NCBI RefSeq assembly: GCF_000179635.2
Contig: NC_014833.1
Location: 630,001-662,000, forward strand
DNA: 32,000 nucleotides
Source: Ruminococcus albus 7 = DSM 20455
GTDB taxonomy: Bacteria > Bacillota > Clostridia > Oscillospirales > Ruminococcaceae
Direction of reading: 5' to 3'
Made by a program: the position numbers and the translations under genes. Below the pieces are notes generated by a model that was not told where the DNA came from, did no database searches, and saw only the letters and a list, made by a program, of their open reading frames with translations. Positions 15,329 to 26,858 of the stretch are shown one piece after another (the first letter of the stretch is position 1; each line of letters begins with the position of its first letter).

Positions 15329-16396
15329 ATGGCGGAAACCAGATTTATCAAGACGGTAGAGTTCGGCGGCTATGACAGAGATGACGTTATCAAGAGATTT
15401 GAATTTCTGAACTCTCAGCTGTTTGACCTTAAAAATGAACTGCGCGAAACAAAGCTGCTCATGGAGGAATACAAGAAAGGTTCGTCCGAGGAAAAGGCTC
15501 ATGAGGCTGTGCTCGGTCAGGAGAGAGTCAAGCTGACCAGTCTGCAGGTACAGAATGAAACAGCTTCGGCTAAGCTGAAGGCTTCCGAGGAAGATAAAGC
15601 TAAGCTCTCGGAGGAGCTTGTGGCGCTGAAGGCTGCTCACGCAGAGGCAATGAAGGAACTGGAGGATGTCAAGTCAAAGCTGAACGCTTATGAGTCTGAC
15701 AATGAGGCGAATGCGCTCAGCCAGGTGTTTATTGCTGCACAGGCTTCCGCAACAGCAGTAGTTGCAAATGCTAACAAAGAAGCTGATGAGAAGAAGGCAC
15801 AGACAGAAGCGCTCGTTAAAGAGATGATCGACGATGCGAACCACACTGCTGCCGAGATAGTATACGAGGCTGAAAAGAAGGCTGCCGAGACTGATGCTGA
15901 AACAAAGAACGCATCCGAGAAGATGAAGGTGGCTTCCAATAACCTCAGAGCTTCCATGCTCGCAGAGGTAGAGGGTCTTAATGAACAGATGGCTGCACTC
16001 AGCGAAGTGTTCAAACTTATAAAGGAAAAGAGTACCGAGGCTGAGAACATCCTGAAGACCACTGAAGACAAGCTTAACGAGGGCGGTGTGCCTGAATTCA
16101 AGATACCTGAAACTTTTGAAGCTGAACTCCCTGATGCGCCCGAGCCGAGAAAGTCTGCTGAGGAGACCAAGAAGTCCAATGCAAGACTTGAAGAACTGGC
16201 TAAGATGGCAGCATCCATCGGCGGCGACAAGGGCAAGTCCGAAAAGGGTGATGAGGAAAAGTCAGAGGAAGAAGCTTCTGAAAAGACCGATGATAAGTCC
16301 GGTGAGAAGGCTGCCGACAAAAAAGATGACGGCAAAAAATCGGGCGGCGTAGACCTTGCCGATCTTATGAAGCAGGCTAGTGCATTGAAAAAGTAG
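15329..16396 (+). CDS. DivIVA domain-containing coiled-coil protein with acidic/lysine-rich tail
   Basis: The N-terminus FIKTVEFGGYDRDDVIKRFEFLNSQL fits the DivIVA motif F-x5-(R/G)GYD-x-(D/E)-(D/E)V-x2-F. Long heptad-like coiled coil follows. The C-terminus is low complexity (KSEKGDEEKSEEEASEKTDDKSGEKAADKKDDGKK). The RBS is AGGAGG. Confidence 0.7.
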   Translation: MAETRFIKTVEFGGYDRDDVIKRFEFLNSQLFDLKNELRETKLLMEEYKKGSSEEKAHEAVLGQERVKLTSLQVQNETASAKLKASEEDKAKLSEELVALKAAHAEAMKELEDVKSKLNAYESDNEANALSQVFIAAQASATAVVANANKEADEKKAQTEALVKEMIDDANHTAAEIVYEAEKKAAETDAETKNASEKMKVASNNLRASMLAEVEGLNEQMAALSEVFKLIKEKSTEAENILKTTEDKLNEGGVPEFKIPETFEAELPDAPEPRKSAEETKKSNARLEELAKMAASIGGDKGKSEKGDEEKSEEEASEKTDDKSGEKAADKKDDGKKSGGVDLADLMKQASALKK

Positions 16397-16439
16397 TTAT
16401 CGGCTGCTGCGATAATAATTGGTAAGGAGTGTATTCATT

Positions 16440-18125
16440 ATGAGCGAACTGATAATAACCAGACCTGACAAGTGCGTGGGCTGTAATTCATGCGTAAGAT
16501 CATGTCCTGCACCTGAGGCAAATATAACCAAGATGCTGGAGGGCGGCAAGTTTGTAACTACCGTCAATCCTGACCGCTGCATAGGGTGCGGATCATGCGT
16601 AAAAAGCTGTAACCACGGTGCCAGAGATTATATCGACGACACTGAGGAGTGCATGACAAGGATGAAGAGGGAAAAGATAATCATACTGGCTGATCCCTCT
16701 ATCAAGACAGGATTCCCTACGAAGTGGAAGGGTATACTCGACTGGTTCCGTAAGCAGGGCTGCATGATATACGATGCATCCTTCGGTGCGGATATCTGCA
16801 CATGGGCTCACCTGAGAGCAATAGAGCAGAAAAAGGTCGGCAATATAATAACACAGCCCTGTGCTGCCATAGTAAAGTATGTAGAGACATATCAGCCCAA
16901 GCTGCTGGCTAACCTGTCTCCCATACACAGCCCTGTTTCCTGCAGTGCTGTATACATCAAGAAGTATCTGAACAGGAATAACCCCATAGCAGTGCTGTCT
17001 TCCTGCATAGCTAAGAAATTCGAGGCTGAGGAAACAGGTCTTATTGATTTCAATGTAACTTTCAAAAAGCTGAATGATTACTTTGAGAGAAACGGTATAA
17101 CCATACCCGTATCCAGCACTGAGGATTATGAATACAAATTCGATGACCAGCAGGGTCAGGTGGGCGCTATATACTCACGTCCCGGCGGACTGAGAGATAA
17201 TATCTGGCTGCACAACCAGGATATAAACATCACAACATCCGAGGGTGCACAGAAGGTGTTCCCCGAGCTTGATATGTATGCTGAGATGCCTGACTTCAAG
17301 CACCCTGAGATATTTGATGTGCTTTCATGTGAATTCGGCTGCAACCTGGGACCCGGCGCAAGCACGAACCAGACAATGTTCGATGTTATGCTGACCATGA
17401 AGGAAGTTGAGAATGAGGCTAAGAGCCGCCGTAAATCAGGATTTATGGGCAGAGGCGACGACAAGATGCTCAAGAAGTTCGATGATGAACTGAAGCTCAA
17501 TGACTTCCTCAGAAACTACAAGCCCGTTACTCCTACACCCGTACCTACGGAAAGACAGCTGGATCCTATATACGAAAGCATGGGCAAGCATACCGAGGAT
17601 GACAAGAAGTACGATTGTCATGCCTGCGGACACAGATCATGCCGCGATATGGCTATAGCTATATACAGAGGTCTGAATACACCTGATAACTGCGTGGTAC
17701 ACGCAAAGACTGTCATGGTGGCAAGACACAGCGAACTGGCTGAACAGCATGAGAAGCTGGCAGAGATCACCTATGAATGTCTGGAACTTTCGGATAAGCT
17801 GAAAGCGGATGTTGACAATATACTCAAGAATATGGAGACTATCGGTGATTCTACTGCGAAGACCAGTGAGAGAGCCGATGTTGTAAGGAATCTGCTCACC
17901 AATGTAGTTGCATTCTGCAACGATAATCCTACTATGGATTCGGGCAGTGTCAGCCAGCTGATAAACATACTCGAAACTACCATAGATGCTTTCAGCGCAC
18001 TTGATGACAATGTTAATGTGACTAATGAGAGTTCGGGACTTATCAATAACTCCATCGGTGAGATAACCAGGCTTGTTGAGGAGATAAACAATACTCTCCA
18101 CAAGGCGAGCGAAAAGAAATCATAA
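16440..18125 (+). CDS. [FeFe]-hydrogenase-like protein, sensory (group C/HydS-like) type, with C-terminal coiled coil
   Basis: Two ferredoxin motifs are present, CVGCNSCVRSCP and CIGCGSCVKSCN. H-cluster-like motifs are ITQPCAA (versus TSCCP), SSCIAKKFE (versus MPCxxKxxE) and SCEFGCNLGPG (versus CxxGCxxGGG). There is an exact Cx2Cx4Cx16C motif (CHACGHRSCRDMAIAIYRGLNTPDNC), followed by about 130 aa of coiled coil. I chose the ATG at 16440, 10 nt after AAGGAG, over the TTG at 16419. Confidence 0.7.
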   Translation: MSELIITRPDKCVGCNSCVRSCPAPEANITKMLEGGKFVTTVNPDRCIGCGSCVKSCNHGARDYIDDTEECMTRMKREKIIILADPSIKTGFPTKWKGILDWFRKQGCMIYDASFGADICTWAHLRAIEQKKVGNIITQPCAAIVKYVETYQPKLLANLSPIHSPVSCSAVYIKKYLNRNNPIAVLSSCIAKKFEAEETGLIDFNVTFKKLNDYFERNGITIPVSSTEDYEYKFDDQQGQVGAIYSRPGGLRDNIWLHNQDINITTSEGAQKVFPELDMYAEMPDFKHPEIFDVLSCEFGCNLGPGASTNQTMFDVMLTMKEVENEAKSRRKSGFMGRGDDKMLKKFDDELKLNDFLRNYKPVTPTPVPTERQLDPIYESMGKHTEDDKKYDCHACGHRSCRDMAIAIYRGLNTPDNCVVHAKTVMVARHSELAEQHEKLAEITYECLELSDKLKADVDNILKNMETIGDSTAKTSERADVVRNLLTNVVAFCNDNPTMDSGSVSQLINILETTIDAFSALDDNVNVTNESSGLINNSIGEITRLVEEINNTLHKASEKKS

Positions 18126-18165: not shown

Positions 18166-18411
18166 ATGGCTTCAAAGGTCGCGGTCATAGCGATAATCAT
18201 TGAAAGAGGTTCTTCCGTGGAAGGCATAAACGGTCTTCTGCATGAGTACAGCGAATACGTTGTGGGAAGAATGGGTGTTCCTTACAGGAACAAGGGTATA
18301 AACATAATCAGCGTTGCTGTCGATGCTCCCGAGGAGACGATTGACGAACTTGCACGAAAAATAAACGCACTGGAGGGCATTTCGTCGAACACGGTCTGTT
18401 CGGTAGGATGA
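18166..18411 (+). CDS. TM1266-family putative iron-only hydrogenase system regulator (small ACT/NikR-C-like protein)
   Basis: 81 aa. The pattern VAVIAIIIERGSSVEGINGLLHEYSEYVVGRMGVPYRNKGINIISVAVDAPEETIDELARKINALEGI matches, from my memory of the TM1266/TIGR03959 family, its length and beta-alpha-beta layout. It sits directly after a hydrogenase-like gene. Confidence 0.65.
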   Translation: MASKVAVIAIIIERGSSVEGINGLLHEYSEYVVGRMGVPYRNKGINIISVAVDAPEETIDELARKINALEGISSNTVCSVG

Positions 18412-18549: not shown

Positions 18550-18578
18550 TTGACATTATTATCAAATAGTGGTATACT
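18550..18578 (+). promoter_or_regulatory. SigA-type promoter of the six-gene kinase/vWA/PP2C/GGDEF operon
   Basis: TTGACA (18550-18555), a 17-nt spacer, then TGG-TATACT (18573-18578). A leader of about 135 nt follows. Confidence 0.65.
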
Positions 18579-18717
18579 GAAATAAATGTAATTGGCTTAG
18601 TTTATAATTGAAATTTCCTTTTCGGACTGTCCTGAAGTCAACGATGTGACAGGAGATCTCGGGTATATTGCTGAGATGAAGGCGGTCAACAAATAATTAT
18701 GACAGGAGAGAAGTTAA

Positions 18718-19773
18718 ATGCAATGTGAAAGATGTAATGCCGAGCTGCCCCCGAATGCCATTGAATGCCCCGAATGCGGCGCGCCTGCTCCGCAGAATAT
18801 CGAAGGCTTTGATAATACCATTGAGATACAGCATATACTCAAGACAATAATGGAAAAACATGGCAGCATACTTATCAATGATCCGACACAGTTCGTTTCT
18901 ACACTTAACGATTACCTTAACGGCTACGAAAAGGAACGCAGGCTCCTAGTGAATGCCATGAGGGCAGGCGTACTGAAAAATATGGTCAAGGAAGAAAAGA
19001 CCAACAGGGAATACGCTCTGCTGAGTGCTAAGAGCTATATGATAAATGAACTTTTCGTATCGGAAAATGCCGCTGAGTTCGTACTTGCTTGCTTTACCTA
19101 CACTCTGGGCTGGCCCTATCAGTCTTCCATGACCAAGAAAGAGGAAGAAAAGAAGGAAGATGAGCCCAAGGATGAGGAGCCTGATGAGCCCAAGCTGAAG
19201 ATCGACAGCAAGATCTACAGGACATCGGATGCAGGCAGACACAGACTTGCAAGAAATATAGTTATCCCTGAGGGATTCACCAAGATAGACAGCTTCTGCT
19301 TTGACAGGTTCGGCTTTATGAGATCCATAACACTGCCTTCTACCATGATGGCGATAGGCGATTATGCTTTTGCTGAATGCAAGAACCTGAAAGGTATAGA
19401 GCTGCCGGCAGGACTTAAAGTCATAGAGCAGGGTGCTTTCAGCCAGTGCGGAAAGCTCGCTATGATAAAGATACCAAAGGGTATCCTTGAAATACCGGAT
19501 AATACCTTTGAGTTCTGCTCGAACCTTACTGTTGTAGATGTGCCTAATACTGTAAGCAGTATAGGCGTTGAGGCGTTCTCGGGATGTGAAAAGCTGGAAA
19601 AGCTGTTTTTGCCTGACAGCGTCAAGTTCATTGATAAAAACGCTTTCTCGTATTGTCCGCAGCTTACGATACGCTGCTATGTCAATTCATACGTTCATAA
19701 GTATTGCCTTACTTATAATATCGACTATGAGACAGTTGCGCAGGGCGTAGGTCTGAAGCAGAAACCAATATAA
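18718..19773 (+). CDS. Zinc-ribbon protein with helical middle domain and C-terminal BspA-type leucine-rich repeats (no signal peptide)
   Basis: N-terminal CxxC-x10-CxxC ribbon (MQCERCNAELPPNAIECPECGAP), then an acidic/lysine linker (KKEEEKKEDEPKDEEPDEPK). About six ~23-aa LRR_5-type repeats follow (e.g. SITLPSTMMAIGDYAFAECKNLKGIELPAGLKVIEQGAFSQCGKLAMIKIPKGILEIPDNTFEFCSNLTVVDVPNTVSSIGVEAFSGCEKLEKLFLPDSVKFIDKNAFSYC). Confidence 0.8.
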   Translation: MQCERCNAELPPNAIECPECGAPAPQNIEGFDNTIEIQHILKTIMEKHGSILINDPTQFVSTLNDYLNGYEKERRLLVNAMRAGVLKNMVKEEKTNREYALLSAKSYMINELFVSENAAEFVLACFTYTLGWPYQSSMTKKEEEKKEDEPKDEEPDEPKLKIDSKIYRTSDAGRHRLARNIVIPEGFTKIDSFCFDRFGFMRSITLPSTMMAIGDYAFAECKNLKGIELPAGLKVIEQGAFSQCGKLAMIKIPKGILEIPDNTFEFCSNLTVVDVPNTVSSIGVEAFSGCEKLEKLFLPDSVKFIDKNAFSYCPQLTIRCYVNSYVHKYCLTYNIDYETVAQGVGLKQKPI

Positions 19774-19797
19774 GGATGAAATCGGAGGAAATATCAG

Positions 19798-21141
19798 ATG
19801 GTTGAATTGAAGATCGGCCAGGAGGTCGAGATGGAATTCGGAGGCAGAGCAAAAGTCCTCAAGGTCATCGGCAGCGGTGGTCAGGGTATTGTTTACCTCG
19901 TGGAATTCAACTCCCAGAAATGGGCGCTCAAATGGTATGATGTTGATAAGATCAAGCGCCCCAAGGAGTTCAGACAGAACATCAAGAACAATATACAGGA
20001 CGGTGCTCCCAGCAATAAGTTCCTGTGGCCAAAGTATCTGACCAAGGAGAACGACCAGGGGACCTTCGGTTATATCATGGAGCTGAAGCCCGAAAGCTTC
20101 GATTCCTTCGTGGATATACTCAATACCTATAAGCTGGTCATCGATCCGCTGACAGGCAGAGCTGCAAAGCAGCCCGTAAGGTTCACCAGCCTTTATGCCA
20201 TGGTAACAGCTGTTATCAATATCGCGAATGCGTTCAGACAGCTCCACCGTGTTGGTAAGAGCTATCAGGACCTTAACGACGGTGGTTTCTTTATCAATGT
20301 CAATACCGGTGCAGTGCTCGTCTGCGACTGCGATAATATCGCACCTGACGGAAGCAACTTCGGTATAGGCGGTAAGCCGGGATATATGGCTCCCGAAGTA
20401 GTAAGAGGTATCGCTAAGCCTGATGTACAGACCGATAAGTATTCACTTGCTGTGGTACTTTTCAAGCTGCTGTTCAGAGGTGATCCTATGGAGGGTGAAA
20501 AGGTTGTCAAGGATGTATGCCTGACAGAATCCTCCGAGCTCAGACACTACGGACAGGATGCTGTGTTCGTATATGATCCCGACAATGCTACCAACAGACC
20601 TGTAAGAGGTATACATGACAATGTCATCAAGTTCTGGAGAATATACCCCAAGTACATAAGAGAAGCTTTCATACTCTCATTCACACAGGGTATAACCGAT
20701 CCGAACAAGCGTATAATCGAGAATGAATGGCAGAAGCTGTTTATTCGCCTGAGAAGTGAGATAATCATGTGCGTATGCGGCAGGACGAATTTCACTTCCA
20801 TGTTCTCAAAAGTTGATGAAAAGACTTTCCGCTGCCCCAAGTGCGGTGCTGAGTTCCTGACACTCGGTTTTGACAACAGGGATAACAGGATGCCTTTGTA
20901 TGTCGGATGCAGATTCTACAAGTGTGAGATCGATCCTGACTGCGATGATTTCCTGACCGTGGCGGGTGAACTGGTGGAGAACAAGCTGAAACCCGGTGTG
21001 CTCGGTATAAAGAACTGTACCGAGGATACATGGCAGGCTAAGCTCCCTGACGGAAAGTACTATCCCATACAGCCCGGTAAGGGCTTCCCGATCTGGAAGG
21101 ATCTTGAAGTCGACTTCGGTAAGGTCAAAGCCGGTATGTAA
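19798..21141 (+). CDS. Hanks-type Ser/Thr protein kinase-like protein with atypical catalytic loop and C-terminal zinc ribbon
   Basis: Kinase subdomains are recognisable: G-loop GSGGQGIVY, WALKW (A-x-K), HRVGKSYQDLNDGGFFIN (catalytic-loop equivalent), CDCDN (DFG equivalent), GKPGYMAPEV (APE) and DKYSLAVVLFKLL. The C-terminal part has CVCG-x19-CPKCG and an extra ~90-aa domain. Confidence 0.75.
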   Translation: MVELKIGQEVEMEFGGRAKVLKVIGSGGQGIVYLVEFNSQKWALKWYDVDKIKRPKEFRQNIKNNIQDGAPSNKFLWPKYLTKENDQGTFGYIMELKPESFDSFVDILNTYKLVIDPLTGRAAKQPVRFTSLYAMVTAVINIANAFRQLHRVGKSYQDLNDGGFFINVNTGAVLVCDCDNIAPDGSNFGIGGKPGYMAPEVVRGIAKPDVQTDKYSLAVVLFKLLFRGDPMEGEKVVKDVCLTESSELRHYGQDAVFVYDPDNATNRPVRGIHDNVIKFWRIYPKYIREAFILSFTQGITDPNKRIIENEWQKLFIRLRSEIIMCVCGRTNFTSMFSKVDEKTFRCPKCGAEFLTLGFDNRDNRMPLYVGCRFYKCEIDPDCDDFLTVAGELVENKLKPGVLGIKNCTEDTWQAKLPDGKYYPIQPGKGFPIWKDLEVDFGKVKAGM

Positions 21142-21173
21142 CAAAATTTAAAGGAAAGGGCGTATAAAGATCT

Positions 21174-21989
21174 ATGAATAATAATCTGAATTCTGATGTT
21201 AAGGAAAACACCACAGTCGACGATCTGCTGGATTTCGATGACGATGATCCCCTGGGTGCGACTGCGGTATCTAAAAAGAGCCTCGTAATATTCTTCCTGA
21301 TCGATACTTCAGGAAGCATGAAGGGCAAGAAGATGGGTCAGCTCAATACCGTTATGGAGGAGCTTATACCCGAGATAAGAAAAGTCGGTGAGGCTGATAC
21401 CGATGTTAAGGTAGCAGTACTGACTTTTGACACTGATGTAAAGTGGATGTACTCCGCTCCTATCTCCATTGAGGATTTTGAGTGGGCAAGACTTGGTGCA
21501 CAGGGCGTTACAAGCATGGGTGCTGCATTTACCGAGCTGGCAGCCAGAATGTCAAGAAACAGCTTCCTGAATTCGCCTTCGCTGTCATTCGCACCTGTAA
21601 TGTTCCTGATGACAGACGGTTATCCTTCGGATGACTACAAGTCGGGTCTGAAGGCACTGCAGACCAACAGCTGGTACAAGTTCGGTCTGAAGGCTGCACT
21701 GGGTATCGGTGATGAGGCTAACGATGAGATGCTGGCTGAATTCACAGGTTCCAAGGAAACTGTTGTTCATGCTTACACAGGCGGACAGCTGGCTTCGATG
21801 ATCAAGATCATCGCGGTAACAGCTTCGCAGATAGGAAGTAAGTCGATGACGCTTTCCGATGAAACTAATGAGGAGCTCAGTGAGGAGGATGTATACGCTG
21901 CAAAGCAGAAGATGCTCGGTCAGCAGATACAGGAACTGGTAGGCGATCAGACGGACGGCAGTGACGTTCCTTACGATACGGGCTGGTAA
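21174..21989 (+). CDS. vWA domain protein (TerY-like) with acidic C-terminal tail
   Basis: MIDAS D-x-S-x-S in FFLIDTSGSMKGKKM. Further elements are TFDTDV, GVTSMGAAF and FLMTDGYPSDD. The tail SDETNEELSEEDVY...DGSDVPYDTGW is acidic. Confidence 0.85.
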   Translation: MNNNLNSDVKENTTVDDLLDFDDDDPLGATAVSKKSLVIFFLIDTSGSMKGKKMGQLNTVMEELIPEIRKVGEADTDVKVAVLTFDTDVKWMYSAPISIEDFEWARLGAQGVTSMGAAFTELAARMSRNSFLNSPSLSFAPVMFLMTDGYPSDDYKSGLKALQTNSWYKFGLKAALGIGDEANDEMLAEFTGSKETVVHAYTGGQLASMIKIIAVTASQIGSKSMTLSDETNEELSEEDVYAAKQKMLGQQIQELVGDQTDGSDVPYDTGW

Positions 21990-22022
21990 AGCGACGGTCA
22001 TCGGAAGGAGTGTAGTTTAGAA

Positions 22023-22928
22023 ATGTCTTTTAATGGCTTTAGCCAATCTGTTATGGGTGCCAGCCATGTGGCAAAGGGTATAGTTTGCCAGGACAGCTCG
22101 GCACACAAGATAACAGACCGTTACGCTATAGCTGTGGTGGCTGACGGTCACGGAAGCAAGAAACACTTTCGCAGCAACATAGGCTCGCAGTGCGCTGTTG
22201 AGGCTACTATCGAGACTATTGAAAGGTTCTATGAGAAAGCGGACGAGTTTGAAGCTAATATGCCAAAGAACCACAAGATGATAATCAGAAATATCGAAAG
22301 GCAGATAATCGCAACATGGAACAACAAGGTGATGAAGCATCTTGAGGAACATCCTGTTACGGCTGTTGAAAAGAAGCCCTTTACTCCCGAAGAGTTTGAA
22401 AACATCAATCCCGAGCAGTACTACGGTACTACGCTTATCGCTGCTGTTGCGGGTGTGGATTTCACTTTCGGTGTACAGATAGGCGACGGCAGCTTTGTTG
22501 CGATATTTGAGGACGGCGAGGCTATAATGCCCATGGAGTATGAGGAAGCGAATCCCGCCAACATAACATCCTCTATGTGCAACGCCAATGCAGCTTCGAT
22601 GTTTGAAAGTTTCTATGTAGACGACAAGCGTCTTATAGCGATGTTCTCATCTACCGACGGACTTTATACCTCCTTCGGAAGTGAGTACGACTTCAGGGAT
22701 TATCATGTGATACTGGCATCTCAGCTCAGCTCGCCTGTGCTCGAGGCATCGGTAGTAAAGAATATAACAAAAAGGTCTCATTTCGGTACAGAGGATGATA
22801 TATCCCTGGCTTGCGTATATGATGTTGAATTCGCGGCTGAGAAGGAACCTCTGCTGAAGGAAATGATAGACAGAAATAAGAGGCTTGCGGCTGAAAGAAA
22901 AGCAAAGCTTCATACCGCAAACTTTTGA
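22023..22928 (+). CDS. PP2C-family protein Ser/Thr phosphatase
   Basis: Metal-binding PP2C motifs are present: QDSS, AVVADGHGSKKH, QIGDGS, SSTDGLY and GTEDDISLACV. Confidence 0.8.
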   Translation: MSFNGFSQSVMGASHVAKGIVCQDSSAHKITDRYAIAVVADGHGSKKHFRSNIGSQCAVEATIETIERFYEKADEFEANMPKNHKMIIRNIERQIIATWNNKVMKHLEEHPVTAVEKKPFTPEEFENINPEQYYGTTLIAAVAGVDFTFGVQIGDGSFVAIFEDGEAIMPMEYEEANPANITSSMCNANAASMFESFYVDDKRLIAMFSSTDGLYTSFGSEYDFRDYHVILASQLSSPVLEASVVKNITKRSHFGTEDDISLACVYDVEFAAEKEPLLKEMIDRNKRLAAERKAKLHTANF

Positions 22929-22977
22929 CCGGGATATCGGTTAACTAAATTATAGGTGGATACAGGAGTAATTTGAA

Positions 22978-23964
22978 ATGGATAAGAAAAAAGAAACCAA
23001 AAATTGGATAATTGTGATCGTAGGTATAGTAGCATATCTGTTATGCAGTGTATTACAGGCAATGCTGAGCCGTAAAGGTGCGATGGCAGCACAGGAAGCT
23101 GCTAAGAAAGCAGGCGAGGCAGCAAAGGCCGCTGTACAGAGCGGAAATAACCCGATAGCCGGTGTTATATCACAGATACAGGTCGTTGTAACAGTAGTTC
23201 TCGTACTGTTTGCTCAGAAGAAGGGCTTCATAACAGCTTTGGTACTGAATTCTATAAATACATTGTACACACTGATATTCCAGATGATCATTCCTGGCAG
23301 CACAAAAGCAATGCCCGGTGTTGTAGTAACACTGATCTCTATCGGTATCGCTTCGGTCATCTATTTTTACACAAGCAAGACAGAGAACATGAACGAGGAG
23401 CTCCAGAAGAGCTATCACGAGGCTATTGAACAGAATCGTATCATAGAGGAGCAGGGCGAGACCCTCAAGCACATGGCTTACTATGACAAGCTGACAGGTA
23501 TGCCCAACAGAGAGAGCTTCATGGAGAATCTTGAAAGACAGATCAGAAACAGCGGCGACTGTGTTATGATCTATATTGATCTGGACGATTTCAGACGTAT
23601 AAACGATAACTTCGGTCATGCAATAGGTGATGAACTGCTGAAGCAGTATTCCGAAAAGATCAAGAACTACTGCGGCGACAAGGCATTTGCAGCAAAGATC
23701 GGCGGCGATGAGTATGGTATCGTTCTCGGCAGCGGAATGACCAATGAGGCTATATACCAGTACGCTGCAGGTATAAGTGGTATCTTCGGCGATCCTATCA
23801 CTATGGGCGGTAATGTTTATACAGTTGCAGCAAGCTACGGTGTAGCAAGCTTCCCCGAGAGCGCTATGACAGCAGACGATGTATTCAGATGCGCTGAAAC
23901 TGCAATGTTCAACGCTAAGGAAAGCGGTAAGAACCAGCTTTGCTTCTACACTAACCGCGGTTGA
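22978..23964 (+). CDS. Membrane-bound diguanylate cyclase (GGDEF domain; motif GGDEY)
   Basis: About four N-terminal TM helices. The GGDEF domain has YYDKLTGMPNR, IYIDLDDFRRINDNFGHAIGDELL and the active-site loop AKIGGDEYGIVL. There is no RxxD I-site five residues upstream of the loop. Confidence 0.85.
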   Translation: MDKKKETKNWIIVIVGIVAYLLCSVLQAMLSRKGAMAAQEAAKKAGEAAKAAVQSGNNPIAGVISQIQVVVTVVLVLFAQKKGFITALVLNSINTLYTLIFQMIIPGSTKAMPGVVVTLISIGIASVIYFYTSKTENMNEELQKSYHEAIEQNRIIEEQGETLKHMAYYDKLTGMPNRESFMENLERQIRNSGDCVMIYIDLDDFRRINDNFGHAIGDELLKQYSEKIKNYCGDKAFAAKIGGDEYGIVLGSGMTNEAIYQYAAGISGIFGDPITMGGNVYTVAASYGVASFPESAMTADDVFRCAETAMFNAKESGKNQLCFYTNRG

Positions 23965-24004
23965 TTTTTAGGCAAGTTCACAGGAAAGGCAGTTGAATAC
24001 GATT

Positions 24005-25465
24005 ATGGAAATCAAGGAGCTTTACGATCTTGCGAAACAGTATGCTGAGCTTATAACAAATAATAAGCCCAATTATGTTTCGGAAAATGAGTCGGCTATA
24101 TGCGTTATAGTTGACAATAACGACCAGCCAATCACAGGTATCACCACTGTTACCGTAAGAGGCGGCATGGTCGAGGTTATCCCCGCAGAGACAGTTGCAG
24201 TAAAGAGATTTATCGATCACTGTGGTGATGCGCCTGCAAAATACATTGTTACAATGCTCTTCAAGAACTACGAGGTCATTGAGACAGGAAAGGTCAGCCT
24301 GCTTATGCTTGGACAGACCAATGCTGCCAACGGTGAATGCGTTGTTATGACCTCAGCTGAAGACAGTGTTAAACTGAAGGAAGTAGTACTTGTTTCGGCT
24401 GTAGATAAGTCATCTTCTTCCGAAGGTTCTCTTGTTGCAGAAGCTACTGCGGCAGCAGAAGAAGCACTTGCGGCTGGTGAAGCTCCTTCCGTTGAAAATG
24501 CGGCTGAACCCAGCATGGAAGACCTGATGAACGGCTTTGATGTTGATACTACTTCGACAGAACAGGCTGCATCTGAGCCAATGGGCGCACCTGCAGAATT
24601 TGCTGACGGATTCAGCGTAGATTCAAGTAATCCTTTCTTCGAGGAAGCAGCTACTGCTCCCGATTCTGAAGTTAAAACTATCGACAGCGGTGTTAAGTCA
24701 ATGTTTGACCAGCCCGAGGATGCTACAAGACAGGGCGCTGCAGGCTTCAATATCCCTCAGGGAGGTTATCCTCAGCAGGGAATGACAATGCAGGGCGGCT
24801 ATCCTCAGCAGGGCATGGGCTTCCCTCAGCAGGGTATGCAGCAGAGCGGCTATCCTCAGCAGGGCATGGGCTATCCTCAGCAGGGTATGCAGCAGAGCGG
24901 TTATCCTCAGCAGGGAATGCAGGCAGGCTATCCCCAGCAGGGTATGGGTTATCCTCAGCAGGGAATGCAGGCAGGCTATCCCCAGCAGGGTATGGGTTAC
25001 CCCCAGCAGGGAATGCAGGGCGGCTATCCCCAGCAGGGTATGGGCTATCCCCAGCAGGGAATGCAGCAGGGCGGCTATCCTCAGCAGGGCGCAGGTTATC
25101 CCCAGCAGGGAATGCAGGGTGGTTATCCTCAGCAGGGTACAATGTTTAATACCGGTACAACTACCACAGGCGGATTTCCTCAGGCAGGCGTAATGCAGTC
25201 CATGATGAAGATGCCCGGTGTAGGACAGACTTCGATACAGGTATCTGAGTCTGCAACATCTATTCCTGTAAGCCAGAACATCAAGTCTTTGAACACTGAT
25301 GAAATCTCAAAGTATTCATCAAGTGCAGCTGAGCCTGATGATGACGAAGATGAGGATGACGGCACTATGAGCAGAGAAGATATGCTCAAGGCTGCCAAGC
25401 AGAAAAAGAAGAATGCCAAGCTAAATGCCAACTTCAAAAAGAAGATGAGAGATTCAGGATTCTGA
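24005..25465 (+). CDS. Hypothetical protein: globular N-domain, acidic linker, 15 GYPQQGM repeats, acidic patch and basic tail
   Basis: A long ORF in the operon frame. The ATG is at 24005 (MEIKELYDL...), and an alternative TTG lies at 23993 as in the ORF track. I recognise no family. Composition changes sharply along the protein: an Ala/Glu/Ser linker, then a Q/G/P/Y/M repeat block, then [11 protein letters not shown], then [18 protein letters not shown]. Confidence 0.7.
24761..25141 (+). repeat. In-frame tandem repeat encoding 15 copies of G(Y/F)PQQG(M/A/T) with 0-3-residue spacers
   Basis: Read directly from the sequence: [127 protein letters not shown]. The copies differ at synonymous sites (tatcct/tatccc/tacccc; cagggc/caggga/cagggt). 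Confidence 0.95.
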
Positions 25466-25479
25466 TACCAAAAATATAA

Positions 25480-25526
25480 AGCCATAGTATTTCCGATGTT
25501 TGGTCGGAAATACTATGGCTTTTTTG
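25480..25526 (+). terminator. Strong Rho-independent terminator closing the six-gene operon
   Basis: Perfect 17-bp stem AGCCATAGTATTTCCGA (25480-25496) / TCGGAAATACTATGGCT (25504-25520) with a 7-nt loop. The T-run is 25520-25526. Confidence 0.9.
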
Positions 25527-25555
25527 TTGACAATACATGAATAATGTGATATAAT
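25527..25555 (+). promoter_or_regulatory. SigA-type promoter for the 25701 ORF
   Basis: TTGACA (25527-25532), a 17-nt spacer, then TGA-TATAAT (25550-25555), i.e. an extended -10. It starts immediately after the preceding terminator. Confidence 0.65.
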
Positions 25556-25700
25556 CATATTCGGCTGTCCTGACGGCACTCCTTTTTATTAGCTATACGA
25601 TAATAAATGTATATCGTTATACCGGCATAAGAAGTGATGTTCTATATGGATGACCATAATTATTAATACAGTCGGAATACATTACACGGAGGAGATCGTT

Positions 25701-26168
25701 ATGCCACAGATGAACAAAGGTGGAAAGTTTATATTCGGAAAATCGTTGATAAGGGAAGATGGTGTTATCAGGCTTCCGGAACAGGCAATAAGTGAATACG
25801 ACATAACTTCGGAAGGAAGGGTCTATCTGTTTACCGGCAGCAAGAGCACAGGCGGATTTTGTGTGACACGAAAGGGTCTGCTTGAACCGTCTTTGCTTGG
25901 ACACATACTGAGAGAAACTGACGGACTGAAGGATTATACAGCTGAACAGGGTAAATTCATCAAGTATAAAGGACGTTCATATTCATGGACGAATATCACT
26001 GATGACGGAAAGATCATTTTGTCAAAAGAGATGATGTCATTTCTGAAGATCGAACCGGGTATGAAACTACTATCTATACGCAGCAGTGACATAGCTTTCA
26101 CGATGGGTGCATATGGTCGGCTTTTAGAGGAATCCATGAAACACGAGGATGAGATACCGGTGTTCTGA
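25701..26168 (+). CDS. Hypothetical protein with two SpoVT/AbrB-like (swapped-hairpin) segments
   Basis: The ATG at 25701 is preceded by GGAGGAG (MPQMNKGGKF...). Two segments resemble the AbrB-type motif G-hydrophobic-I-x-(L/I)-(P/S)-x-E: DGVIRLPEQAISEYDITSEGRVYLF and DGKIILSKEMMSFLKIEPGMKLLSI. The assignment rests on pattern only. Confidence 0.45.
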   Translation: MPQMNKGGKFIFGKSLIREDGVIRLPEQAISEYDITSEGRVYLFTGSKSTGGFCVTRKGLLEPSLLGHILRETDGLKDYTAEQGKFIKYKGRSYSWTNITDDGKIILSKEMMSFLKIEPGMKLLSIRSSDIAFTMGAYGRLLEESMKHEDEIPVF

Positions 26169-26324: not shown

Positions 26325-26858
26325 TTACTTGAATTGTACGCCCCAGTCGGAACTGATCTTGCTGTAAAGATTCAGCTTAACGCGGCTCTTCTGCCAACGG
26401 AAGAAGTAGGATACACCGCAGAATACGATAACAGTACCGATAGCTGCAATGACGATACCCAGTACAGGCTTGATAACGAATATACCAAGACCCCACAGTG
26501 CCAGTGTCAGTACTACGATTATAGGCAGAGCAGAAGTGATAAAGCTTCTGTCAGTTACCTTGATGTAATTCTGTATCTCCTTGAGATCGAAAGCCTCATA
26601 GTGTCTTGCTATGAAATTGTCAGGTCTTGCCCAGGTGCAGAATTCCTTGACGTTATTGAACTTTGCAGCGTAATCTCTGAAAGAGTAACCCTTACCAACG
26701 TCGGTAACACGGTATTCTACCAGATAACCATCCTTCTTACGATCCTTAACATCAAGAACGTGAATAATACTTCCCGGCTCAGCCTGAGCTTTCATGGGTT
26801 TAGTCACAAGAAACTTTCTGTCAACAGCTTCATCCAGATTGTTGAGCATATATGTCAT
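26325..26858 (-). CDS. Hypothetical protein with soluble N-domain and two C-terminal TM helices
   Basis: 177 aa with the RBS GGGAAGGAAG, its own promoter and its own terminator. The TM segments are ALPIIVVLTLALWGLGIFVI and VLGIVIAAIGTVIVFCGVSYFF. I preferred it over the overlapping plus-strand ORF 26313-26894. Confidence 0.6.
   Translation of the reverse strand: MTYMLNNLDEAVDRKFLVTKPMKAQAEPGSIIHVLDVKDRKKDGYLVEYRVTDVGKGYSFRDYAAKFNNVKEFCTWARPDNFIARHYEAFDLKEIQNYIKVTDRSFITSALPIIVVLTLALWGLGIFVIKPVLGIVIAAIGTVIVFCGVSYFFRWQKSRVKLNLYSKISSDWGVQFK

Follow-up and report, generated by a model that had tools for sequence, protein, structure and literature searches.

The stretch of DNA analysed here (the window; 32,000 nucleotides (nt) of Ruminococcus albus 7, NC_014833.1, positions 630,001 to 662,000) contains six closely spaced genes on its + strand, numbered 1 to 6 below, whose center is a Ser/Thr kinase, a von Willebrand factor A (vWA) protein and a PP2C-type phosphatase. 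Judged from sequence, this core is a triad of the TerY-phosphorylation (TerY-P) type. The unit conserved in Ruminococcus consists of five genes, encoding an adaptor-leucine-rich repeat (LRR) protein, the kinase, the vWA protein, the PP2C and gene 6. We read the locus as a chromosomally fixed, Ruminococcus-specific elaboration of the TerY-P triad that may operate as a phospho-switch, and we give this reading a probability of about one half.

The kinase, vWA protein and phosphatase

The TerY-P triad was proposed by Anantharaman, Iyer and Aravind (2012), as summarised in PMC11090510, and is defined in the CoCoNuT paper as a TerY-like vWA protein, a PP2C and a kinase with a C-terminal zinc ribbon (PMC11090510). 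In E. coli (genes yegL, pphC and yegI), YegL is a vWA protein and YegI a Ser/Thr kinase that, once autophosphorylated, is dephosphorylated by the PP2C PphC (10.1101/303594). In pairwise BLASTP comparisons the vWA protein from the window matches YegL with 31% identity (E 8e-11), the kinase matches YegI (E 1e-8) and the phosphatase matches PphC/YegK (E 1e-7). We assign the core to the TerY-P type because of these significant similarities and because the kinase carries a C-terminal zinc ribbon. The initial annotation of the window, made from the letters and their open reading frames (ORFs), had suggested this assignment and had named yegI/yegK(pphC)/yegL as an example; the similarities bear out the former, and the E. 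coli study (10.1101/303594) the latter.

The kinase (gene 2; 19798-21141, + strand; 447 amino acids (aa)) matches Pfam Pkinase with an E-value of 2.1e-10. It had been described as atypical, but it is not strikingly so: K45 (in ALKWY), D158 (YQDLND), D177/D179 (CDCDN) and the APE motif at residues 198-200 are conserved in the family, and the departure is at position +5 of the catalytic loop, where the window copy has Gly and the family consensus Asn. The C4 zinc ribbon (CxC...CxxC) occupies aa 325-349 (nt 20770-20847). Its cysteines, C325, C327, C346 and C349, are invariant or nearly so among 48 diverse kinase homologues, and the C-terminal part of the protein weakly matches zinc-ribbon families. 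At E<1e-30 the kinase family comprises 671 clusters at 50% identity, mostly of full-length proteins of ~430-450 aa.

The vWA protein (gene 3; 21174-21989, + strand; 271 aa; Pfam VWA, 6.8e-10) has an intact metal-ion-dependent adhesion site (MIDAS), its DxSxS motif reading DTSGS (aa 44-48, nt 21303-21317). An acidic stretch, LDFDDDDPL, lies at its N-terminus, and the protein finishes in an acidic tail that ends DTGW (nt 21975-21986). An acidic C-terminal tail with a Trp at, or at most 2 residues from, the end is found across the family (loci L003-L182; the prefix L marks our locus labels): 68 of 77 Ruminococcus copies end in DTGW, those in more distant loci in DDWD, DEWD, GIQW or TNW, and YegL in KGWTSV. 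This acidic-Trp tail looks like a conserved docking motif. The phosphatase (gene 4; 22023-22928, + strand; 301 aa) matches PP2C_2 (2.6e-34) with its motifs intact, including the metal-binding ADGHG at nt 22140-22154. Pfam searches thus agree with the families first named for the five annotated proteins of the operon, namely a zinc ribbon with LRR_5, Pkinase, VWA, PP2C_2 and GGDEF.

Conservation of the gene block

We compared the operon with two sets of loci. The close set contains the 80 best loci from species-representative genomes, all of Ruminococcus or Oscillospiraceae, with kinase identities of 76-98%; gene content was counted in the 56 of these (the Ruminococcus loci below) that have room on both sides. 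The distant set (~95 loci) contains six contigs found through kinase homologues (41-53% identity), nine IMG/VR contigs and 80 metagenome contigs, the last with 42-80% identity to the distant kinase that heads the query alignment (L096).

Genes 1 to 4 occur in the same order in 54 of the 56 Ruminococcus loci, and 51 of these also have gene 6. The most frequent arrangement (40/56) is LRR protein, kinase, vWA protein, PP2C and gene 6 without a GGDEF gene, gene 6 following directly after the PP2C; all six genes are present in 11/56 loci and 5/56 are partial. The six genes, which the initial annotation had presented as one module, are therefore not conserved as a single unit. The order of the block stays intact while the flanking genes vary between genomes. 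The kinase and the vWA protein share ~80% identity with their counterparts in the window, the PP2C ~60%, gene 1 ~50% and gene 6 ~28%.

In the distant loci kinase, vWA protein and PP2C are almost always intact; the whole trio is present in 56 of the 80 metagenome loci, and most of the remainder are truncated contigs. We found no relative of gene 6 and no GGDEF gene in the ~95 distant loci. The possibility raised at the outset, that only the trio is conserved and its companions are replaced, thus holds for the GGDEF gene and gene 6 when the distant loci are considered, but not for the adaptor module of gene 1 described below, nor, within the genus, for genes 1 and 6.

A partial second copy of the block was seen at L079 (1060-5587) and L081. 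It consists of a gene-6-like gene, a reversed GGDEF gene (FGEEEF), a kinase and a vWA gene, with no LRR or PP2C gene, and the gene that follows it resembles a 177-aa membrane ORF of the window (26325-26858, - strand). L079 and L031, the latter holding the start of a canonical operon, belong to the same metagenome-assembled genome record, JAMPGO01. In many of the metagenome loci (L103-L135) a conserved ORF of ~119-121 aa lies directly upstream of the kinase, and recurring genes of ~366, ~355 and ~1260 aa often lie downstream.

The N-terminal module of gene 1

The protein encoded by gene 1 (18718-19773, + strand; 351 aa) starts with a zinc ribbon (aa 3-23, nt 18724-18786; Zn_Ribbon_1, 1.7e-4, below the curated cut-off), continues with a helical module (~aa 30-155, nt 18805-19182) and a charged linker, and ends in a BspA-type LRR_5 domain (PF13306, 1.2e-36; aa 188-316, nt 19279-19665). 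It has no export signal: the zinc ribbon (MQCERCNAEL...) forms the N-terminus, and there is no hydrophobic leader. No Pfam family was found for the helical part. A single-sequence AlphaFold2 model of the N-terminal module is all-helical, with five or six helices; its mean predicted local distance difference test score (pLDDT) is 54, and it was used for secondary structure and not for a fold search.

A hidden Markov model (HMM) of the zinc ribbon and helical module (~110 aa) was run on the genes adjacent to the triad. It found matches beside the triad in all six loci of the first distant set (E 1e-7 to 1e-20), in four of six usable IMG/VR loci after one iteration, and in 27 of the 41 metagenome loci whose flanks reach 1.5 kb or more on either side. 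In every case the module is N-terminal, and in the metagenome loci its gene mostly lies directly after the PP2C or directly before the kinase. What follows the module differs widely: LRR_5, RCC1, KWG/WG, Sel1/TPR, FGE-sulfatase and FtsK domains, a DUF4011-SF1 helicase, a DEAD-box helicase, coiled-coil membrane proteins, or nothing. Some distant loci encode two or three proteins of this type. The recurrence of the module beside the triad, fused to such different domains, suggests that it acts as an adaptor. The arrangement in L087 and L092, where a zinc ribbon sits on the C-terminus of the PP2C and the LRR protein encoded next starts with the helical part, without the ribbon, hints at a fusion/fission (Rosetta-stone) link between the PP2C and the adaptor protein. 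The zinc-ribbon/LRR protein, at first proposed as a plausible sensor or adaptor next to the triad, is thus a conserved neighbor whose N-terminal module recurs well beyond Ruminococcus.

The C-terminal domain of the kinase

Behind the zinc ribbon the kinase has a further beta domain (~aa 352-447, nt 20851-21138). An AlphaFold2 model of aa 315-447, built from an alignment with full-length homologues, reached a pLDDT of 90.7. When the kinase C-terminus was compared with the PDB by Foldseek, 43 of the top 50 matches were forkhead-associated (FHA) domains or FHA proteins, among them TIFA, APLF, MDC1, Rv0020c, OdhI, GarA and the FHA domain of Bdellovibrio DgcB, with probabilities of 0.9-1.0 and target-normalised template modelling (TM) scores of up to 0.59. 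The predicted fold of this domain is FHA-like, and we hypothesize that it may serve as a phosphopeptide reader. An HMM profile of the same region gave weak matches to S17 (OB-fold; E 0.13-0.6). As these matches are weak and the structure search favors FHA, an OB-fold seems the less likely reading.

A deaminase-like protein encoded by gene 6

Gene 6 (+ strand) starts at TTG 23993 or ATG 24005 and extends to 25465 (490 or 486 aa); the window copy has no Pfam match. The initial annotation had described it by its GYPQQGM repeats. These are real (24770-25139, period 21/48 in Tandem Repeats Finder), but the protein is not merely a prion-like repeat protein, given that it also has a predicted domain of the cytidine-deaminase fold (nt 24005-24391) and a conserved basic C-terminal helix (25367-25462), which is preceded by an acidic patch (25331-25360). 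This plan is common to 68 orthologues: an N-domain of ~128 aa, a linker of 62-324 aa, and the acidic patch with the basic helix, for which the consensus is LSKEE(M/L)LKQAKERKKVAKANFNFKKK.

The deaminase assignment comes from the orthologues. PF00383 (cytidine/dCMP deaminase zinc-binding region) is matched by 5 of 24 diverse N-domains, the best with 8.9e-8. All five matches (E<=1) of a profile of motif-keeping orthologues against the PDB are to blasticidin-S deaminase (BSD) or cytidine deaminase (CDA), with E-values of 0.0045-0.09, and they align the [HC]xE and PCxxC motifs. The window copy is syntenic with these orthologues and shares 24-31% identity over the N-domain with the more distant PF00383-matching ones and 60-75% with its two closest relatives. 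The full zinc/catalytic signature [HC]xE...PCxxC is kept in 12 of 67 orthologues. The window copy reads PAE (24182-24190) in place of [HC]xE and ETGKVS (24281-24298) in place of PCxxC. Since its zinc ligands have been lost, the window protein is probably deaminase-like in fold with no deaminase activity expected. With 12 of 67 orthologues still intact, the family presents a deaminase fold caught in the course of losing catalysis.

Of 67 orthologues, 46 have at least three [YF]PQQ repeats; the basal lineages, whose linkers are short, have none. This distribution indicates that the PQQG repeats are a derived and variable feature of the linker. Most orthologues also have a GFxVDxxNPF(F) motif (24608-24640 in the window) within the otherwise variable linker. 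HMMs of the N-domain and of the C-terminal helix gave no match outside Ruminococcus.

The GGDEF cyclase

Gene 5 (22978-23964, + strand; 328 aa) encodes a predicted membrane-anchored diguanylate cyclase. Its GGDEF domain (Pfam 1.2e-32) covers aa 167-320 according to Pfam and NCBIfam; hydropathy places hydrophobic segments within aa 7-133, and there is no sensory domain before the GGDEF domain. The metal/GTP-binding segment DLDDFRRIND..GH is present, the active-site motif reads GGDEY (nt 23701-23715; F to Y, the closest orthologues having GGDEF), and an RxxD I-site is not present.

A GGDEF gene in line with the block occurs in 11-13 of the 56 Ruminococcus loci, which fall into three neighboring clades of the kinase tree. 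These in-line cyclases are orthologous to one another (39-74% identity vs 22-27% to other GGDEF genes). One of the clades reads SGDEF and has GL or GM in place of GH; GGDEY is found in the window copy alone. Gene 5 is thus an accessory, lineage-specific insertion. Because the gene is rare in the Ruminococcus loci and absent from the distant ones (0/~95), synthesis of cyclic di-GMP (c-di-GMP) is not an output of the system in general, as had been supposed; a six-gene module with such an output describes the lineage of the window and does not extend elsewhere. A separate GGDEF gene lies 3-5 kb upstream of gene 1 in 45 of 61 Ruminococcus loci (including L003 and L005), mostly divergent and behind a gene for a periplasmic binding protein. 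It is absent from the lineage of the window, which has only the in-line cyclase.

Operon structure and genomic setting

The gaps between successive genes, from gene 1 to gene 6, are 24, 32, 33, 49 and 28 nt, and a Shine-Dalgarno (SD)-like purine-rich stretch lies upstream of every ORF. No terminator-like site was found on the + strand between the promoter at 18550-18578 and the terminator at 25478-25522. Given the short gaps and the lack of internal terminators we infer that the six genes are probably transcribed as one unit. All elements of the initial description of the operon were recovered here: six ORFs on the same strand, gaps of 24-49 nt, SD-like stretches and no internal terminator.

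The promoter (+ strand) is of the sigma-70 type, with TTGACA, a spacing of 17 nt and TG-n-TATACT, matching the consensus at 11/12 positions and having the extended -10 TG. As a class, consensus promoter matches are not in excess in the window (18 observed vs 18.3 expected in shuffled sequence). The position and sequence of this one (cTTGACA...gTGnTATACT) are kept upstream of gene 1 in ~10 Ruminococcus loci. The leader that follows (~135 nt; 18579-18717, + strand) belongs to no Rfam family, and between the promoter and the SD stretch it varies in sequence and length among loci. We considered a riboswitch in the leader, for instance one for c-di-GMP, and rejected it: the leader is not conserved and no Rfam family was found across the whole window. 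The intrinsic terminator (25478-25522, + strand) has a 20-pair stem, a 5-nt loop and a T run, and can be read on the - strand too. Both elements that had been proposed to bracket the operon thus stand, the promoter with conservation in relatives and the terminator with a 20-pair stem rather than the 17-bp stem first reported.

The operon is surrounded by housekeeping genes (RNase R, an rRNA methyltransferase-like gene and a hydrogenase-like gene). A horizontally acquired island was considered; the window has no GC shift, tRNA gene or mobile-element gene. Just upstream of the operon lie the hydrogenase-like gene (16419-18125; Fer4, Fe_hyd_lg_C and a long C-terminal extension) and a small TM1266-like gene (18166-18411). 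Many Ruminococcus loci also have the hydrogenase-like gene close to the operon, with 46-86% identity (57-72% in most) and in either orientation, and synteny is therefore partly conserved. Before it, 15329-16396 encodes a 355-aa Lys/Glu/Ala-rich protein, probably a coiled coil, with no Pfam match in the stored annotation of the same contig. Directly after the operon terminator, at 25527-25555, lies a promoter that matches the sigma-70 consensus at 12/12 positions and has an extended -10; it presumably drives a 172-aa ORF (25650-26168) that has no Pfam match.

Proposed mechanism and alternative explanations

In the mechanism that we propose, the kinase would phosphorylate itself and/or the vWA protein or gene 6, and the PP2C would reset this state. 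The FHA-like domain of the kinase and the MIDAS of the vWA protein would read the phospho-state or the acidic tails, so that a complex assembles or dissolves. The N-terminal module of gene 1 would dock its LRR domain, a surface for recognition or scaffolding, onto the switch. Gene 6, having lost the deaminase motifs in the window copy, may be a ligand-binding or tethering subunit that acts through its C-terminal helix. In the lineage of the window the complex would sit beside a membrane diguanylate cyclase, and the switch could also set the level of c-di-GMP; the cyclase, where present, and gene 6 would be lineage-specific outputs or subunits.

Several observations weigh against this reading. 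The assignment of the FHA-like domain is one of fold similarity, with Foldseek E-values of only 0.03-0.4, and Pfam FHA is not found in 21 members of the kinase family at E<=0.1. The canonical phosphothreonine-binding residues of FHA domains are GR, SxxH and NG; the conserved GIKNxS...W pattern of the kinase family does not map plainly onto these motifs. Of the 41 metagenome loci, 14 gave no match to the adaptor module, and neither did L093 and L098. The coupling to a GGDEF protein may be opportunistic, given the SGDEF copies and the GGDEY of the window. Finally, distant relatives of the kinase lie beside TerD, FtsK/HerA ATPases, helicases and integrases, and some of them on IMG/VR contigs, settings that suggest conflict systems more than housekeeping signalling.

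The last point leads to the main alternative explanation, in which the operon would be an anti-phage or conflict system, by analogy with the TerY-P defence system of Gao et al. (2020): the LRR protein would sense a phage product, the triad would transduce the signal, and growth arrest would follow through c-di-GMP or through sequestration by gene 6. The neighbors of the distant triads include TerD with a cation ATPase, FtsK/HerA/TrwB ATPases, DUF4011-SF1 and DEAD helicases, and integrases or resolvases, and these settings fit the published TerY-P contexts (PMC4978471, PMC11090510). Protection against T7-like phages is documented for TerY-P-like triads (PMC7699616), and such triads are also found together with restriction systems (PMC11090510, PMC4978471). 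A constant adaptor that carries variable C-terminal domains is a typical feature of immune sensors, and genes 1 and 6 evolve much faster than the kinase and vWA genes. However, the block is present in all 80 best Ruminococcus genome loci in fixed order and with a highly conserved kinase and vWA protein, unlike the patchy occurrence that is usual for defence genes, and the window, with its housekeeping neighbors, shows neither a composition shift nor mobile-element genes. The block contains no nuclease or other obvious effector. The vWA protein and the PP2C match no PADLOC model at E<=10, although the presence of TerY-P models in PADLOC 2.0 is unconfirmed, and the kinase matches only the generic PADLOC kinase models PD-T4-6 and mad6, over the region of the activation segment. 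We regard a defence role in Ruminococcus as unlikely, if not negligibly so.

A second alternative concerns the cyclase, which could be a passenger inside the operon, with the five-gene core or the triad as the functional unit. The absence of the gene from 40/56 Ruminococcus loci and from all distant loci fits this explanation, as do the degenerate motifs in one in-line clade and the general abundance of GGDEF genes, another of which lies upstream in most of the loci. Nevertheless, the in-line cyclases of the three clades are orthologous and always occupy the same slot between the PP2C gene and gene 6, with short gaps; moreover, the cyclase has a membrane anchor and no sensory domain, and therefore needs external input. 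We consider a mere passenger improbable. A module for metal or xenobiotic stress of the Ter type, in which the vWA MIDAS would sense a metal and the triad would relay the signal, has been proposed for TerY-P in clusters for tellurite resistance and is suggested by analogy with relatives at ~41-46% kinase identity that directly follow a cation P-type ATPase gene and two or three TerD genes (L087, L092, L156, L158, L161, L165 and L167), but appears very improbable here, where neither the window nor the Ruminococcus loci contain TerD, TerB, TerC or a metal transporter and the LRR and deaminase-like partners have no evident link to metals.

The phospho-switch reading of the Ruminococcus operon can be extended to TerY-P systems as a whole. 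In this more speculative version, which we think doubtful, the zinc-ribbon/helical adaptor would be a fourth, hitherto unnamed universal component of TerY-P systems, through which interchangeable sensors or effectors (LRR, RCC1, KWG, Sel1, FGE-sulfatase, FtsK, helicases) are plugged in. The Ruminococcus system would be a conflict-type system domesticated into a signalling pathway of the core genome, in which Ser/Thr phosphorylation, read by the FHA-like domain of the kinase, is coupled to c-di-GMP synthesis and to a pseudo-deaminase whose low-complexity linker could form assemblies.

Comparison with known systems

TerY-P triads are widespread, in E. coli, Ter clusters, CoCoNuT/restriction loci and a validated anti-phage system, and the role given to them in the literature is a hypothesis. 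Through the constant adaptor, candidate partners of the triad can be pointed out in hundreds of loci, and the FHA-like module on the kinase suggests phospho-dependent assembly. The combination, in one operon, of the putative switch with a membrane cyclase that lacks a sensor offers a measurable output, c-di-GMP, through which the function of the switch could be followed. Bacteria of the Ruminococcus flavefaciens group are major rumen fibre degraders, and a regulatory operon conserved in them may for this reason bear on the control of adhesion or lifestyle. The triad in the window is a known system. We found no paper that describes the adaptor module of gene 1 or the Ruminococcus arrangement; Anantharaman et al. 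(2012) may already describe the adaptor.

With TerY-P triads in general the operon shares adjacent, co-directional genes for a TerY-like vWA protein, a PP2C and a kinase with a C-terminal zinc ribbon, and its distant kinase relatives are found in Ter clusters and beside FtsK-type ATPases. It differs in that the window and the Ruminococcus loci contain no Ter or DNA-processing genes, which the literature treats as a common context and not as a strict requirement. It also differs by its additions: the adaptor-LRR partner, the deaminase-fold protein, the optional GGDEF gene and the FHA-like domain after the zinc ribbon. The E. coli genes yegL-pphC(yegK)-yegI belong to the same three families, with significant similarity in all three pairs. 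However, their order is vWA-PP2C-kinase, YegI has 648 aa and a different C-terminal half, and there is no LRR adaptor gene, no deaminase-like gene and no GGDEF gene in the operon, dgcE being a separate gene a few kb away. The TerY-P anti-phage system (Gao et al. 2020) is likewise a three-gene cassette of vWA protein, phosphatase and kinase, but its kinase is described as fused to an OB fold (PMC11090510), whereas the window kinase has a zinc ribbon and an FHA-like domain.

The FHA-GGDEF cyclase DgcB of Bdellovibrio offers an analogy for the cyclase-containing lineage; in crystal structures its FHA domain holds the phosphorylated N-terminal peptide of the same protein (PDB 6hbz, 6hc0, 6hc1). 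In DgcB a phosphopeptide-reading FHA domain is tied to c-di-GMP synthesis, and this FHA domain is among the Foldseek matches of the window kinase. DgcB thus shows that the two activities can be linked in one protein; in the Ruminococcus operon the FHA-like and GGDEF domains belong to the kinase and to a separate membrane protein, and their coupling is hypothetical.

The N-domain of gene 6 aligns to the [HC]xE...PCxxC core of the CDA/BSD family. Unlike in that family, the zinc ligands are missing from the window copy and from 54 of 67 orthologues, and the domain, encoded in a kinase operon, is followed in the same protein by a long disordered linker and a conserved basic helix. BspA-like LRR_5 proteins are usually surface or secreted proteins. 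Gene 1 has the LRR_5 domain in common with them, but it has no signal peptide and places a zinc ribbon and a predicted cytoplasmic adaptor in front of the repeats.

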